Positions 1,096-16,816 are shown, counted from the stretch's first letter. The stretch is 32,000 bases of DNA from Delftia acidovorans NBRC 14950 (GCF_001598795.1 NZ_BCZP01000019.1:30001-62000); one strand, 5' to 3'. Notes: generated by a model from the letters alone, not told the origin. Program-made: numbers and translations.

Positions 1096-1276
1096 TCCCT
1101 GGCAGCACGTCATCTGTACGCGCCATGGCTGCCACGGATTGCAGGTGGGCCTTGCGGATGGCGTCCGGCACAGCCTGCTCACGGCCTTCCTGTTCCGCGG
1201 TGCGCCCCTCGACATTGACGCCATCTGCCGTGACGAAGGACTCCCCAGGTCGAAGGGTGATCGCGCGGCTACGCAT
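878..1276 (-). CDS. Possible ORF in the cII-equivalent position; only the first ~60 codons look coding
   Basis: ATG at 1276 overlaps the cro stop by 8 nt. GC3 is about 70% for 1276..1100, then drops to about 44% where the frame runs antisense through 823..1095. No stop occurs before 878. Confidence 0.3.
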   Translation of the reverse strand: MRSRAITLRPGESFVTADGVNVEGRTAEQEGREQAVPDAIRKAHLQSVAAMARTDDVLPGTTDSLASLRWRQAAFVARAAPSAPREPVAPLPAPDLCPKAPRSSSIRWLLGSSAIAVLALVLARSVAPKGSA

Positions 1277-1535
1277 GGCCTTGCTCCTGGGCGGCAGGCT
1301 GCGCAAGCTCGGGCCAGATGTCCTGCCAGTCGTTGGGGCGGAGGTCACGGCGGGAGACAGTCCCACTGGACAGCGCTTCGATCCTGGGGCTAAGCGCCTT
1401 CGGAACCGGACGCCGCCTCTTGATCCACTGGTTCACAGTGGGCGGGGATACCTGTAAGGCGCGAGCCAGGGCAGCTTGGCTGCCGACAAGATCGACAACC
1501 GCCTGCACCGCAAGTCCGGGGTGTAAGTACGTCAT
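1269..1535 (-). CDS. Cro-like / YdaS-family HTH regulator (88 aa)
   Basis: GSQAALARALQVSPPTVNQWIKRRRPVP...IE..S.G.V.R.DLRP resembles YdaS/Cro (DUF1019-type) proteins. It is divergent from the CI-like repressor across the operator region. Confidence 0.85.
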   Translation of the reverse strand: MTYLHPGLAVQAVVDLVGSQAALARALQVSPPTVNQWIKRRRPVPKALSPRIEALSSGTVSRRDLRPNDWQDIWPELAQPAAQEQGHA

Positions 1536-1540
1536 ACCCC

Positions 1541-1617
1541 ATGATAAGGCTCTGCCTAATTTTGATCAATAGGCATTGCCTACGCACACTCACACATGGA
1601 ACATTAGGCAATGCTTA
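1541..1617. promoter_or_regulatory. OR-like region: three operators plus divergent promoters
   Basis: Operators are TAAGGCTCTGCCTAA 1545-1559, the perfect 13-bp palindrome TAGGCATTGCCTA 1570-1582, and TAGGCAATGCTTA 1605-1617. On the minus strand, -35 TTGATC (1569..1564) and -10 TATCAT (1546..1541) face cro. The third operator covers the repressor ATG. Confidence 0.75.
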
Positions 1618-2333
1618 CTGGTGAAAAATTAGGCCAAGCCATCGCTGAAGCCATCGAACTGAAGGGCGTCTCCAAGAAGGAGGTGGCCGAGCACTTTGAG
1701 GTAAGGCCTCCGTCCATCCAAGACTGGGTGAATCGTGGAACCATCAGCAAGGACAAGCTCCCAAAACTCTGGAGCTACTTCGCAGACGTAGTCCAGCCAG
1801 CGCACTGGGGGCTGCCCGATTACCCGCCAGGGACTACCGCCGAGACATCCAAGCAAGGGGAGAACGTGATCCAGGTCATCGATGACACCCCGCCGCCCGG
1901 CTACGTACGCCTACAGCATCTCTCGGTCCGGCCGTCGATGGGTCCTGGCTCGCACATGGACGAGGCCGTGCAGATCGTCCGGCATCTCGATGTCTTGGAA
2001 AGTTGGGTCCGCAAGAAGATCGGGACCGTCAATCCCGAGCGCATCAAGATCATGACGGGCAACGGCCACAGCATGAAACCAACGATTCAAGATGAAGACC
2101 TGGTGTTTGTGGATATGGGGCAGAGGACCATTGACGCACAGGGTATTTACGTCATCGATGTTTACAACCGCCTCTTGTTGAAGAAAGCACTAATACTGTC
2201 TGACGGCACACTGGTCCTTCGCAGCGACAACATCGTGGACTATCCCGACGAAGAGCGAATTGATCTTCGCAAGGCATCTGAGTGCATCAACATTGCCGGC
2301 AAGGTGTTGGCGTGGTGGACTATGAAGCATTGA
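1611..2333 (+). CDS. CI-like prophage repressor, XRE-type HTH plus S24 (LexA-like) peptidase domain (240 aa)
   Basis: N-terminal HTH (GVSKKEVAEHFEVRPPSIQDWVNRG). C-terminal S24 motifs GNGHSMKPT (Ser) and LLLKKA (Lys). Divergent from the cro-like gene. Confidence 0.9.
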   Translation: MLTGEKLGQAIAEAIELKGVSKKEVAEHFEVRPPSIQDWVNRGTISKDKLPKLWSYFADVVQPAHWGLPDYPPGTTAETSKQGENVIQVIDDTPPPGYVRLQHLSVRPSMGPGSHMDEAVQIVRHLDVLESWVRKKIGTVNPERIKIMTGNGHSMKPTIQDEDLVFVDMGQRTIDAQGIYVIDVYNRLLLKKALILSDGTLVLRSDNIVDYPDEERIDLRKASECINIAGKVLAWWTMKH

Positions 2334-2358: not shown

Positions 2359-2383
2359 GAGCCCGCCATGAGCGGGCTTTTTC
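2359..2383 (+). terminator. Intrinsic terminator after the repressor gene
   Basis: GCCCGC-CATGA-GCGGGC followed by TTTTT. Confidence 0.7.
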
Positions 2384-2424
2384 ATGACCGCTGGCTGGCG
2401 AGCTACGCGCCATGCAACAAATTA

Positions 2425-2440
2425 CTGTACACGCATACAG
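2425..2440. promoter_or_regulatory. LexA (SOS) box
   Basis: CTGTACACGCATACAG is an exact CTGT-N8-ACAG. In the context TACTGTACACGCATACAGTT it matches 15/20 positions of the E. coli consensus. Confidence 0.7.
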
Positions 2441-2488
2441 TTGTCATGCATACTTTAACTGTGTTTTTAACCAGCACCAAGGATGCAC

Positions 2489-2788
2489 ATGACCACTTCC
2501 GCCCTCACCTCGTTCCGAGTCACTCTTCAAGACTGCATCGGCATCGAGCACGACATCAAGGCCAAGGCCGAAGCCCGCTTCGCCAAGGTGATTGAACGCA
2601 GCTTCCCCAGCCAAGAGGCCATGACCCGGGCCTACAAGCTCTTCAACGATGCGGCCGAGGGCGGCGTAATCGGGAAGGCCAACGAGGCAATGGCGCTTTC
2701 CTGGCAGAAGGCCTATGAGGCGGCCCAACAAGCCGGACTTCAGGGGATAGCCGTGGAAGAGGCCTACTTCGAAGTCCGCCTTCACTGA
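2489..2788 (+). CDS. Hypothetical protein (99 aa) downstream of the LexA box, in the rexAB/sieB-equivalent slot
   Basis: ORF 2483..2788. AAGGA at 2479-2483 favours ATG 2489. No family recognised. Confidence 0.6.
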   Translation: MTTSALTSFRVTLQDCIGIEHDIKAKAEARFAKVIERSFPSQEAMTRAYKLFNDAAEGGVIGKANEAMALSWQKAYEAAQQAGLQGIAVEEAYFEVRLH

Positions 2789-2793
2789 GCGCA

Positions 2794-2857
2794 AAGGCAG
2801 CGCATAGAAATTAATAAGGCAACGCCTATTGCAGAAAATTAGGCATCGCCTTATCAT
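2794..2857 (+). promoter_or_regulatory. OL/PL-like module: operators plus rightward promoter
   Basis: Operators are TAAGGCAACGCCTAT 2815-2829, TAGGCATCGCCTTA 2840-2853, and a weaker AAGGCAGCGCATA 2794-2806. Promoter: -35 TTGCAG 2829-2834, 17-bp spacer, -10 TATCAT 2852-2857. The 42 nt at 2816-2857 match the reverse complement of 1541-1582 at 35/42 positions. Confidence 0.75.
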
Positions 2858-2863
2858 CGCCTT

Positions 2864-3304
2864 CAACGTACCTAGCCACCGCACATGCGGACCGGCCGGG
2901 AAGTTGGGCACCACGGCATCGACCGAGCAAGCCCCGGTCTTTCACAAGTCGCACGCCGATGTTGCTTGCCCCACCCGAGGGGCATTCGTCCGGCGAAATG
3001 GCGCTCCTGGGCATGGGCCAGGTCAGCGCGCCGCGTCTCCGCGCGGTTGCCAGTCCGTCAAAGCACGGTTCACGGCATAGGGAAGGAACTGCGGGCGGGA
3101 TGCCCTGTAGAGAGTAGGCGGGAGGCTGTGAAGGGTGCGCGCCAGCGCATTTGGAGCCGACGATGGAACACCGCCCTGGCATGCCGGTGACGAACGCAGT
3201 GAGATGACACCACGGAGCAAATAAACGGTGCGGCATGTTGATGCCGCGCAGCTGCTACCAGATGCAGCACGCCCTCCCCGAGCGCATCGGGGCGAAACAA
3301 AAGA
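2864..3304 (+). other. ORF-poor, hairpin-rich leader / candidate non-coding RNA downstream of PL
   Basis: No frame on either strand gives a protein-like translation or an SD-preceded start. Several 5-7 bp hairpins are present (e.g. GCGGCAT-GTTG-ATGCCGC, CCCCGA-GCGCA-TCGGGG). The region ends at an intrinsic terminator. Confidence 0.35.
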
Positions 3305-3335
3305 GGCTTCTCGATGCGGGAGGCCTTTTCTGTTT
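3305..3335 (+). terminator. Intrinsic terminator (tL1-like)
   Basis: GGCUUCUC-GAUGC-GGGAGGCC (8 bp including 2 G-U pairs) followed by UUUUCUGUUU. Confidence 0.6.
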
Positions 3336-4059: not shown

Positions 4060-4356
4060 ATGCTGAGACTCATTATTTACGTGCTGCTCGCGGCGGCCGC
4101 CTGGAAGGCATACACGACGTATCAGGCCAAGACCGGAGGGCCGGTCCCGGCTCTGCTTCTCAATGAGCCTCGCCCTCGCGACATCGATGTCGGCAGCACC
4201 ACTTCAAGCGCTCCTAAATACACCTGTGACGGTCGCACGCACTGCTCGCAGATGACCTCGTGCGAAGAGGCGAAGTTCTTCCTGCGCAACTGCCCCAACA
4301 CCAAGATGGATGGAGATGGAGATGGCATTCCGTGCGAGCGTCAGCTCTGCAACTGA
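4060..4356 (+). CDS. Membrane-anchored Excalibur (calcium-binding) domain protein (98 aa)
   Basis: N-terminal TM helix (LIIYVLLAAAAW). C-terminus CSQMTSCEEAKFFLRNCPNTKMDGDGDGIPCE matches the Excalibur DxDxDGxxCE signature. Confidence 0.75.
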   Translation: MLRLIIYVLLAAAAWKAYTTYQAKTGGPVPALLLNEPRPRDIDVGSTTSSAPKYTCDGRTHCSQMTSCEEAKFFLRNCPNTKMDGDGDGIPCERQLCN

Positions 4357-14939: not shown

Positions 14940-15188
14940 ATGAAACACACAGTTACAGAACCTGGCGCCCCAGGAAATACCGTGCCATCCCAGGGCGCGG
15001 ATTGGGTGCTTGCCACGAAATACAAGGAAATGACTGGCATCACGCCCATGACCATCCATAACCGCCGTCGCGCCGGCATTTGGCTGGATGGCACGCACTG
15101 CGGCGTCGTGGGCAGACACCTCTATGTAAACGTAAAGGAAGCAGATCAGTGGATAAAAAACCAGCTCCATCAACTCCGGCGGGCGTGA
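14940..15188 (+). CDS. xis: Excisionase-like protein (82 aa)
   Basis: GGTGGA RBS lies 5 nt before the ATG. WVLATKYKEMTGITPMTIHNRRRAGIWLDG...YVNVKEADQWI resembles lambdoid excisionase-like proteins. Sits immediately upstream of int. Confidence 0.7.
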   Translation: MKHTVTEPGAPGNTVPSQGADWVLATKYKEMTGITPMTIHNRRRAGIWLDGTHCGVVGRHLYVNVKEADQWIKNQLHQLRRA

Positions 15189-16324
15189 CAGTCCGGGAAA
15201 TGGCCACGGGCGCTCGAATTCAGATCGCGTTCTCGTGGCACGGGCAGCAATGCCGGGAGCTCCTGCCTCCTGGGCCGGTCAACAAGGGCAGCATCCAGTA
15301 CGCAGCGAACCTGCGCGCTGAGATTCGGCGCAAGATCACAGATGGCACGTTTGTGTACGCTGAATACTTCCCGGCCAGCGCGAAGGCCCGAGCGCCAGAT
15401 CCGCTTTCCTGCCTGATGGAAGAGATGTTGGTGAAGCAATTGGAGCTGTACCGCAGGCAGGTCGAGAACGAGAAGATGTCGCCGGCCACATTCCGTGGCT
15501 ACGAAAAAAGCATCAGCGGGGAGCGCATGCGGCGATGGCATGGCCTCAAGCTCCATGAAGTCACGCCTTCCGCCCTCCGGGAGTGGATCAGCGGGATGGA
15601 ATGCACCAGCAAGGCTATCCGCAATATGCTGATTCCATTGCGCAGCGTGTTTGAAGATGCGCTGAACGACGGACTCATCGAGTTCAATCCCTTCGACCGG
15701 CTCGCGCTCACCAAGCTCATCCGCCAGACCAGCCGGGCCAGCGACTATGTGATCCAGCCCTTCACTCAGGCGGAGCGGGAGCAGATCCTGCTGGCGTGCA
15801 GAGACGATGAGCGGCCGATGGTTCAGTTCTGGTTCAACACGGGTCTGAGGCCGGGCGAACTGCAGGCCCTCGAATGGAGACACATAGACTGGGAGAAGGC
15901 AACGGCCCGGATCGAGCAAAACCAGGTCGTGGGTGTGCTCAAGGCACCAAAGACGGCCGCAGGCATCCGCAGCGTGGACCTGAACTTCGAGGCCATGGAG
16001 GCCCTGCGAACACAGAAGGCCTACAGCATGCTCCGCGGCGCACGGGTTTGGCTCAACCCTCGGACGCTCGAGCCGTGGACAACTGATGCCCAGGTGCGCA
16101 AGACCGCATGGATGCCCATCATGCAGCGTTCCGGCATCTCATACCGGAACCCCTATCAGGTGCGGCATACCTACGCTTCTTCGATCCTGACCGCCGGCGC
16201 CAACCCGTGGTATGTCGCCCAGCAACTGGGCCACGAAGATGTGGAGATGGTCTTTCGCACCTACGGGAAGTTCATCCGCGAGGACTACCAGAAGCCCCGG
16301 GCCACGCTCCAAGCGGTGAACTGA
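15185..16324 (+). CDS. int: Lambda-type tyrosine integrase with N-terminal arm-binding domain
   Basis: IQIAFSWHGQQCRELL...YAANLRAEIRRKITDGTFVYAEYFPAS resembles the arm-binding DUF3596-like domain. C-terminal RHTYAS...LGH...TY catalytic motifs. GTG 15185 overlaps the xis stop; alternative ATG at 15200. Confidence 0.9.
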   Translation: MTVREMATGARIQIAFSWHGQQCRELLPPGPVNKGSIQYAANLRAEIRRKITDGTFVYAEYFPASAKARAPDPLSCLMEEMLVKQLELYRRQVENEKMSPATFRGYEKSISGERMRRWHGLKLHEVTPSALREWISGMECTSKAIRNMLIPLRSVFEDALNDGLIEFNPFDRLALTKLIRQTSRASDYVIQPFTQAEREQILLACRDDERPMVQFWFNTGLRPGELQALEWRHIDWEKATARIEQNQVVGVLKAPKTAAGIRSVDLNFEAMEALRTQKAYSMLRGARVWLNPRTLEPWTTDAQVRKTAWMPIMQRSGISYRNPYQVRHTYASSILTAGANPWYVAQQLGHEDVEMVFRTYGKFIREDYQKPRATLQAVN

Positions 16325-16437: not shown

Positions 16438-16816
16438 TGGTGGAGCTGGCGGGAATTGAACCCGCGTCCGCAAGCCTTCGCCGGGCAGATCTACATGTTT
16501 AGCGTTCTGTTTTGAGTCTCGCCTCCCAAGTCGCGCAGGCGCACGCTACCCGGGATGCCAGCTTCCTTGGATCTTGCCACGTACTAAGAAGCCCAGCACG
16601 CAGCCAGCTGATGTAAATTCCCTTGCAGCCGGGAGGTATTGCTACCCCCTTGCCCAGCCCATCAGCGTGCTGTTGCAAGGCTCACCGGATTTAAGCGGCG
16701 AGTGCGAAACGTTCGTCGTTTGCAGTTAGTTTTTTGAATGGAGATTTACGAGCGTCACTCAAGCTCGACATGCACCACACCGGTCCCGAACCCACGTCGA
16801 AACCAGGACAGCCCCA
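16438..16816 (-). ncRNA. ssrA: tmRNA (SsrA), tag peptide ANDERFALAA
   Basis: Minus-strand 5' end is GGGGCTGTCCTGGTTTCGACGTGGG. The 3' end is GCGGGTTCAATTCCCGCCAGCTCCACCA. The tag reading frame GCA AAC GAC GAA CGT TTC GCA CTC GCC GCT TAA is at 16723..16691. Confidence 0.95.

Follow-up and report, generated by a model that had tools for sequence, protein, structure and literature searches.

The locus

This report concerns a short transcription unit in a window of 32,000 nucleotides (nt) from Delftia acidovorans NBRC 14950 (NZ_BCZP01000019.1:30001-62000); the window is the whole stretch analysed and all positions are counted from its first letter. The unit, positions 2423-2788, comprises two SOS boxes, a putative promoter and an open reading frame (ORF) of 99 codons, here called ORF99. 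It is located between the gene of a phage CI repressor and a left operator/promoter region (OL/PL). Judged by its genes, the beginning of the window lies inside a lambdoid Delftia prophage. The comparisons presented here make it probable that 2423-2788 is a LexA-repressed moron which stems from an uncharacterised Comamonadaceae family of the SOS regulon. The prophage thus would carry a borrowed host-type gene and not a new induction switch.

The gene order, cro-OR-cI-[slot]-OL/PL, is that of a lambda-type immunity region (OR, right operators), and the right and left early promoters, PR and PL, are paralogous. The region 2815-2857 is assigned to OL/PL because its operators match the OR type and its promoter almost duplicates PR. 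An earlier interpretation, made from the DNA alone and referred to as the sequence-only reading, had placed ORF99 in a rex-like slot between cI and OL; the order cI-rexA-rexB-OL in lambda confirms this. It further held that the terminator of cI sets ORF99 apart as a separate transcription unit. This terminator does fold (Table 1). It consists of a stem, 2359-2379, and a T-run; across 18 related loci the stem is kept and the loop is variable. The 99-codon ORF with its Shine-Dalgarno sequence also stands, and it encodes a conserved protein.

SOS boxes and a putative promoter

Box 1 is an exact CTGT-N8-ACAG palindrome as in LexA operators of the E. coli type, and the same motif is the SOS-box consensus in most Betaproteobacteria (PMC6595937). 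By direct count the 20-mer TACTGTACACGCATACAGTT agrees with the E. coli LexA consensus TACTGTATATATATACAGTA at 15 of 20 positions, as the sequence-only reading had reported. Box 2, core CTGTGTTTTTAACCAG, had been missed in that reading and surfaced in an alignment of the homologous loci.

When the window is considered by itself box 1 is not significant, because the core motif occurs once against 0.46 copies expected by chance and at least once in 37 of 100 shuffles. Its support is derived from conservation across loci. The close comparison set consists of 19 homologous Delftia loci which encode proteins 64-97% identical to ORF99. Eighteen of these have box 1 in its exact form, at -66 from the ATG and surrounded by divergent flanks; L005 deviates by a CCAG variant there. 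Box 2 is found in all 19 loci and takes the exact ACAG form in L005, L018 and also in the Comamonas locus L020. In the alignment (A5) the core columns of box 1 are invariant and those of box 2 are conserved. Such conservation in orthologous promoters despite diverging flanks is characteristic of a LexA operator.

These data bear on the most trivial explanation, i.e., that a chance palindrome happens to be positioned beside a spurious, functionless ORF. The frequency of one exact motif per 32 kb would be compatible with it. The conservation of the motif across 19 loci with diverging flanks, the location of every exact box in a set of distant loci (see below) and the conservation of the protein family argue against it. 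Its probability is negligible, and the comparative data can be said to have effectively refuted it already.

The two boxes frame a pair of hexamers, TGTACA-N17-CATACT. TGTACA is part of box 1; the -10-like CATACT, positioned between the boxes, had also escaped the sequence-only reading. The ATACT of this hexamer shows little or no variation in prophage and chromosomal homologs alike. We infer that TGTACA-N17-CATACT is a sigma-70 SOS promoter from which transcription starts near 2461. Box 1 then would cover the -35 region and box 2 the transcription start. A generic consensus promoter scan of the window did not call this hexamer pair. An alternative promoter, TTGTCA (2441-2446) with an extended -10 TGTTTTTAA, was rejected for lack of conservation of TTGTCA in the other loci.

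Tandem SOS operators occur at the lexA, recN and colicin promoters and imply tight repression. The boxes of ORF99 resemble these in that two of them flank or overlap the core promoter. They are dissimilar in spacing: they are 34 nt apart, start to start, have the -10 between them and neither adjoin nor overlap each other.

Table 1. Features of the window from Delftia acidovorans NBRC 14950 (positions in the window; strand + or -, a dot where none applies).
Feature	Position	Strand	Remarks
SOS box 1	2423-2442 TACTGTACACGCATACAGTT; core CTGTACACGCATACAG 2425-2440	.	exact CTGT-N8-ACAG
-35-like hexamer TGTACA	2426-2431		inside box 1
-10-like hexamer CATACT	2449-2454	+	17 nt after TGTACA
SOS box 2	2457-2476; core CTGTGTTTTTAACCAG 2459-2474	.	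one mismatch (CCAG)
Shine-Dalgarno sequence and ORF99	2479-2788	+	AAGGA 2479-2483; ATG 2489; 99 codons; stop 2786-2788
cro-like helix-turn-helix (HTH) gene	1269-1535	-	divergent from cI; Pfam YdaS_toxin 7e-19, P22_Cro 2e-6; PHROG 35, transcriptional repressor
OR-like region	1541-1618	.	three AGGC-N3-GCCT-type operators: 1545-1559, 1569-1583, 1604-1618 (read from sequence)
PR	1569->1541	leftward	TTGATC-N17-TATCAT; promoter scan match
CI repressor gene	1611-2333	+	N-terminal HTH and C-terminal S24 domain; Pfam Peptidase_S24 1.6e-11; PHROG 4, 6201
Intrinsic terminator closing cI	2359-2383	+	-17 kcal/mol, z = -4.2
OL-like operators	2815-2829, 2839-2853		same type as OR operators (read from sequence)
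PL-like promoter	2829-2857	+	TTGCAG-N17-TATCAT; paralogous to PR
Burkholderiales-2 RNA motif in PL leader	2955-3029	-	opposite to PL; Rfam RF02917, 84.8 bits
23S rRNA L1-stalk-like element	3096-3186	+	91 nt; Rfam LSU model 2125-2216, 53.9 bits, E ~1e-13
Intrinsic terminator ending PL leader	3301-3335	+	-21.1 kcal/mol, z = -4.1
Tyrosine integrase gene	15080-16324	+	Pfam Phage_integrase, Arm-DNA-bind_2
Transfer-messenger RNA (tmRNA) gene	16438-16815	-	directly beside integrase; Rfam tmRNA, 194.7 bits

The ORF99 protein and its family

The start codon of ORF99 is assigned to the ATG at 2489. An alternative ATG at 2483 is not preceded by a Shine-Dalgarno sequence, and the equivalent upstream start is annotated in one of 26 aligned homologs (P0001). 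A word-indexed search yielded 27 clusters of homologs at 64-97% identity; those with a named organism are all from Delftia. When 1.84 billion representatives were searched with a profile, the family grew to 74 representative clusters (clusters at 50% identity) of about 100 amino acids (aa), which are matched over the full length. The 74 clusters lack any functional annotation and, with one exception, bear the label hypothetical or uncharacterised. Where a source is named it is Comamonas, Lampropedia, Ramlibacter, Xylophilus, Caenimonas or "Burkholderiaceae"; the named organisms are Comamonadaceae or other Burkholderiales. Sequence conservation extends down to about 30% identity and the predicted fold is stable. 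Five AlphaFold2 models computed from a diverse alignment concur, with a predicted local distance difference test (pLDDT) of 81-85. They indicate a beta-alpha3-beta topology with strands at residues 9-14 and 93-98 and helices at 21-38, 42-56 and 63-83.

The sequence-only reading could not place ORF99 in any family and proposed searches with profile hidden Markov models and structure predictions. These searches returned neither a family nor a solved fold relative. Searches with ORF99 alone or with 38 family members gave no assignment in Pfam, PHROGs, NCBIfam or PADLOC, and a tblastn search of ORF99 against 50,697 phage records gave no match. Foldseek searches with two AlphaFold2 models found no solved relative in PDB (best E = 2, template modelling score at most 0.44). 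In BFVD there were two weak matches, both to uncharacterised phage proteins. The known small SOS proteins DinI and YebG have no Pfam or NCBIfam match among the 38 family members. E. coli YebG, an uncharacterised small protein induced in the SOS response, resembles ORF99 in its size of about 100 aa and in the LexA regulation which is predicted for ORF99. The two are not related according to hhalign (probability 0.04), and there is no Pfam YebG match. Literature searches retrieved no description of the family.

Two members of about 200 aa, P0191 and P0198 (L024 5001-5606), have a Pro/Ala-rich linker and terminate in QISLF or QLDLF. We take these tails to resemble the C-terminal beta-clamp-binding motif of SOS polymerases.

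Chromosomal homologs

The family is not confined to prophages. A distant set comprises 12 independent non-prophage loci with a total of 106.8 kb: one each from a Delftia chromosome, Comamonas, Lampropedia and Caenimonas, a locus of Ramlibacter type, two from Xylophilus, and the remainder from metagenomic contigs. Nine of the 12 loci have an exact box, two have a box with one mismatch and one has none. The exact boxes are positioned no more than about 60 nt ahead of the start codon or, in one instance (L036), before a two-gene operon. Altogether 10 exact CTGT-N8-ACAG motifs are present in these 106.8 kb, and all 10 are directly upstream of a family gene or its operon. Because of this the family would qualify as a member of the LexA regulon in its own right. 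If it belongs to the LexA regulon of the host clade, the prophage ORF99 therefore would be a copy of a host-type SOS gene.

The Comamonas homolog (L020 5001-5294; 49% identical) stands alone between a Vut_1 transporter gene and the aconitase B region, a position which is syntenic in four Comamonas-type assemblies. Upstream of it GATACT is flanked on either side by an exact box. The same two-box layout precedes a chromosomal copy in Delftia sp. PS-11, which lies downstream of an ORF read by eye as argC. Comamonas, the Delftia chromosome and L035 agree in the geometry of the two boxes and in having ATACT or ATATT in the interval. No repressor gene adjoins the chromosomal homologs with SOS boxes.

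Several neighbors of the distant family genes were recorded. A gene for an SOS-response-associated peptidase (SRAP) adjoins the family gene in two unrelated loci (L025 4170-4907; L047 1918-2595). In Xylophilus a single exact LexA box lies in a divergent intergenic region of 58 nt which is common to the family gene and a SRAP gene. A Ku-like gene is the neighbor in L029 (4219-4851). The SRAP and Ku neighbors, like the QISLF and QLDLF tails, are hints that the family may have a role in DNA damage. In a metagenome-assembled genome of Xylophilus ampelinus (L036 3460-4294) the family gene is the second in a two-gene unit; the exact LexA box is 45 nt upstream of the first gene, which encodes a 161-aa protein without a Pfam family. 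This operon partner and the ORFs downstream in L025 and L047 have no Pfam match and are not family members.

The sequence-only reading had also considered that ORF99 might be an SOS-triggered exclusion or abortive-infection factor; a toxin can be considered along with these. The slot is that of lambda rexAB, and one distant family gene, in L025, is part of an island with SIR2-like and SMC-like genes. Otherwise the searches brought no positive evidence. PADLOC defence models do not match ORF99 at E < 0.01, and a single family member reaches SspG with E = 0.024. ORF99 has no transmembrane or nuclease features and no partner gene; the stand-alone, syntenic gene of the Comamonas-type assemblies argues in the same direction. 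Moreover, a gene that would be silent in the undamaged lysogen fits superinfection exclusion poorly. The likeness to rexA and rexB is one of position between cI and OL/PL. Lambda rex is co-transcribed with cI from the repressor maintenance promoter PRM in the lysogen, whereas ORF99 is insulated by a terminator, appears to be under LexA control and has no homology to rex. An exclusion or toxin function is thus highly improbable.

The CI repressor and its hinge

The CI protein encoded beside ORF99 matches a Delftia acidovorans protein at 100% identity. Its motifs are exactly those described earlier: GHSMKP and LLLKKA with the catalytic residues, RPSMGPG in the hinge, and NIAGKV with the sole Ala-Gly. 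CI was aligned directly with LexA, UmuD and lambda CI taken from annotated genomes. Ser154 and Lys191 align with S119/K156 of LexA, S60/K97 of UmuD and S149/K192 of lambda CI; thus the Ser-Lys catalytic pair of self-cleaving S24 repressors is present. When CI was compared with PDB sequences by phmmer and with profiles, the alignments covered the HTH domain and not the S24 domain. A tblastn search against phages retrieved uncharacterised repressors of 30-37% identity; matches at 50-55% covered the N-terminal HTH region alone.

The textbook determinant of self-cleavage is an Ala-Gly or Cys-Gly bond (PMC8565304). The hinge of CI reads PSM110-G111-x-G113 and contains neither. MAFFT places LexA G85 ambiguously, against either G111 or G113 of CI. 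In an alignment of 30 homologs with differing N-terminal domains (A3), S154, K191, M110, G111 and G113 are invariant. The hinge consensus is GYVRLxHLSxxPSMGxG, position 112 being variable. Even a CI of only 29% identity (L003 2654-3547) reads CASMGPG. As Met-Gly is invariant and occurs beside an intact catalytic pair, a variant scissile bond is its most plausible interpretation. Most likely, CI self-cleaves at this unusual Met110-Gly111 bond via Ser154/Lys191, and the phage repressors with PSM-G-x-G may form an S24 class in which the scissile bond is Met-Gly. In the literature searches S24 cleavage at Met-Gly was not found to be described.

ORF99 and immunity type

The closest relatives of the locus are found in Delftia genomes and in IMG/VR contigs. 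Versions of ORF99 which are 80-97% identical occur with at least three immunity types: the CI proteins next to it are 100%, 73% or 26-29% identical, and the OL operators are AGGC-N3-GCCT, TAGCGATGCGCTA or of a third type. Since almost the same ORF sits beside divergent CI proteins and different operators, there is no co-variation between ORF99 and immunity specificity. Between cI and ORF99 some relatives have other accessory ORFs, which take up 0.9-2.2 kb. In L009 (3044-3845) this interval codes for a coiled-coil protein and for a second one which, owing to its hydrophobic C-terminal stretch, was read as membrane-anchored; in L016 (2125-3848) it holds four small ORFs on both strands. In view of these insertions in L009 and L016 the slot between cI and OL is regarded as a moron hot spot, in which ORF99 remains beside OL/PL.

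This situation bears on the first proposal of the sequence-only reading, namely that induction may run through a LexA-controlled antirepressor and not through RecA-stimulated cleavage of CI. ORF99 then would bind and inactivate a CI unable to cleave itself for want of Ala-Gly. The proposal has its merits: the SOS-controlled gene sits within the immunity region, the canonical hinge is missing from CI, and every prophage CI found beside ORF99 has the SMGxG hinge. Nevertheless, we consider it quite unlikely. ORF99 is combined with CI proteins and operators of different types, at times with other accessory ORFs in between. The chromosomal homologs have the same SOS boxes and no adjoining repressor. 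Furthermore, the Ser/Lys pair and Met-Gly are invariant, and a CI that had lost cleavage would not keep them. No antirepressor family of PHROG or Pfam was matched.

A comparison with established antirepressors, i.e., Tum of coliphage 186, GfoA/GfhA of Gifsy and AntC of N15, leads to the same result. ORF99 resembles them as a phage gene with an upstream LexA box which would be expressed upon damage independently of the phage repressor. The known antirepressors are restricted to phages and their partner repressors are not self-cleaving. By contrast, ORF99 has chromosomal orthologs, does not co-vary with CI, is adjacent to a CI with the S24 pair, and shows no sequence or fold similarity to them (Pfam, PHROG, Foldseek against PDB and BFVD).

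Another proposal of the sequence-only reading was that the SOS promoter may read through OL/PL and bypass repression by CI. In its strong form read-through, with CI-independent expression of the early-left operon, would be the main function of the promoter and ORF99 would be incidental. One part of this proposal stands. Promoter/terminator scans and folding show no terminator between the stop of ORF99 and the PL-like promoter, here and in most related prophages, and the unit is always immediately upstream of OL/PL. Read-through thus is feasible at this locus. It is not a conserved property: in L016 a canonical terminator directly follows ORF99, and chromosomal copies lack such a downstream operon. 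In the window a strong terminator ends the PL leader, and CI bound to OL would impede the passage of the polymerase. An incidental ORF is also difficult to reconcile with a protein which is conserved to about 30% identity and has a stable predicted fold. As the main function of the unit, read-through is very unlikely.

The prophage and its PL leader

On the PL arm the genes for a DNA methylase and a DUF2303 protein follow, and then that for the integrase. Because the integrase gene adjoins the tmRNA gene, the prophage is integrated at ssrA, the integrase closing the PL arm. The DNA past ~16.8 kb presumably is host chromosome. A 98-aa protein of the PL operon (4060-4356, + strand) combines a hydrophobic segment at its N-terminus with an Excalibur calcium-binding domain; probably it is the product of an accessory gene.

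The PL leader, 525 nt in length, is unusual. The first gene of the PL operon probably starts at GTG 3362, which is preceded by GGAGAG. ATG 3314, the listed start of a 137-aa ORF, falls in the loop of the leader terminator, and in most loci the homologs of this ORF align from residue 14-19 onward. The long structured leader together with its terminator suggests that the early-left operon is controlled by antitermination.

The leader contains two RNA elements. Eight related prophages (L003, L004, L008, L012, L013, L014, L017 and L018) likewise have the Burkholderiales-2 motif downstream of ORF99; a literature search found no paper which names this motif. The second element is similar to the L1 stalk of 23S rRNA. 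Its helices are kept via compensatory changes and its loop motifs are conserved. The module is about 95% identical in L004, L008, L017 and L018 and absent from the other related prophages. Its appearance is that of a structural mimic of the L1-binding site rather than of a recent rRNA fragment. In two further IMG/VR contigs, L041 (9500-9574) and L043 (6041-6115), the Burkholderiales-2 motif is positioned about 90 nt before an L1-stalk-like core. Because of this repeated co-occurrence we regard the two elements as a module.

Discussion

The preferred interpretation, a LexA-repressed moron taken from a Comamonadaceae SOS family, can be formulated as follows. The two SOS boxes bracket a putative sigma-70 promoter, and two LexA dimers would silence ORF99 in the healthy lysogen. 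The cI terminator would insulate the gene from PRM. Upon DNA damage LexA would be cleaved with the help of RecA, and ORF99 would be derepressed independently of CI. The product is predicted to be a soluble 99-aa beta-alpha3-beta protein. It would act on a general DNA-damage process of the host and not specifically on the CI of the prophage. From the genomic context candidate targets are replication or translesion synthesis, repair, or the RecA/LexA axis.

A precedent exists in the dinI-like genes of enterobacterial prophages, which are LexA-boxed host SOS genes carried by lambdoid prophages. The parallels are a small soluble protein, a LexA-repressed promoter of its own, chromosomal homologs in the host clade and the status of a lambdoid accessory gene. 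On the other hand, ORF99 has no Pfam DinI match, its predicted topology is beta-alpha3-beta, and it is located inside the immunity region. The regulatory logic of an SOS-boxed prophage accessory gene with tandem operators is well known.

Some findings weigh against the moron interpretation. The position of ORF99 is constant, always just before OL/PL, and a generic moron model leaves this unexplained. All four CI types beside ORF99 have the SMGxG hinge and no Ala-Gly, so a link of ORF99 to this repressor class is conceivable. The Lampropedia homolog is without a box, the sole such locus of the 12. ORF99 is devoid of a sequence or fold relative in Pfam, PHROGs, NCBIfam, PADLOC and the PDB and BFVD libraries searched with Foldseek. 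Finally, a tail resembling the clamp motif is present in just two of the 74 representatives.

Because the fixed place before OL/PL and the association with SMGxG are unexplained, we retain a minority probability for a link to induction. The family might be an unrecognised Comamonadaceae SOS effector which acts on a core component, for instance the beta-clamp/replisome or the self-cleavage step of RecA-LexA/S24. Delftia prophages then might have fixed a copy in the immunity region so that induction of their Met-Gly CI repressors is coupled to, or timed with, the SOS response of the host. The clamp was included in this consideration because of the QLDLF and QISLF tails of the long variants. We consider this version unlikely. 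If it is true, the switch between lysis and lysogeny would receive, with ORF99, a second input that is gated by LexA.

With the host-type SOS gene as the preferred interpretation, the idea of a novel antirepressor loses its appeal. What emerges is a new, testable candidate member of the LexA regulon in Comamonadaceae, an unannotated family of ~100 aa for which the comparative SOS evidence is unusually clean. Both the family and its SOS-regulon status appear to be undescribed in the libraries and papers searched. The prophage would carry a copy of such a gene in a rex-like slot. Further, phage repressors with an invariant Met-Gly hinge are flagged as a putative class, the cleavage chemistry of which is of interest. 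Should the ORF99 protein modulate the replisome, RecA or S24 cleavage, it would be a new SOS effector and provide a new way of tuning prophage induction.

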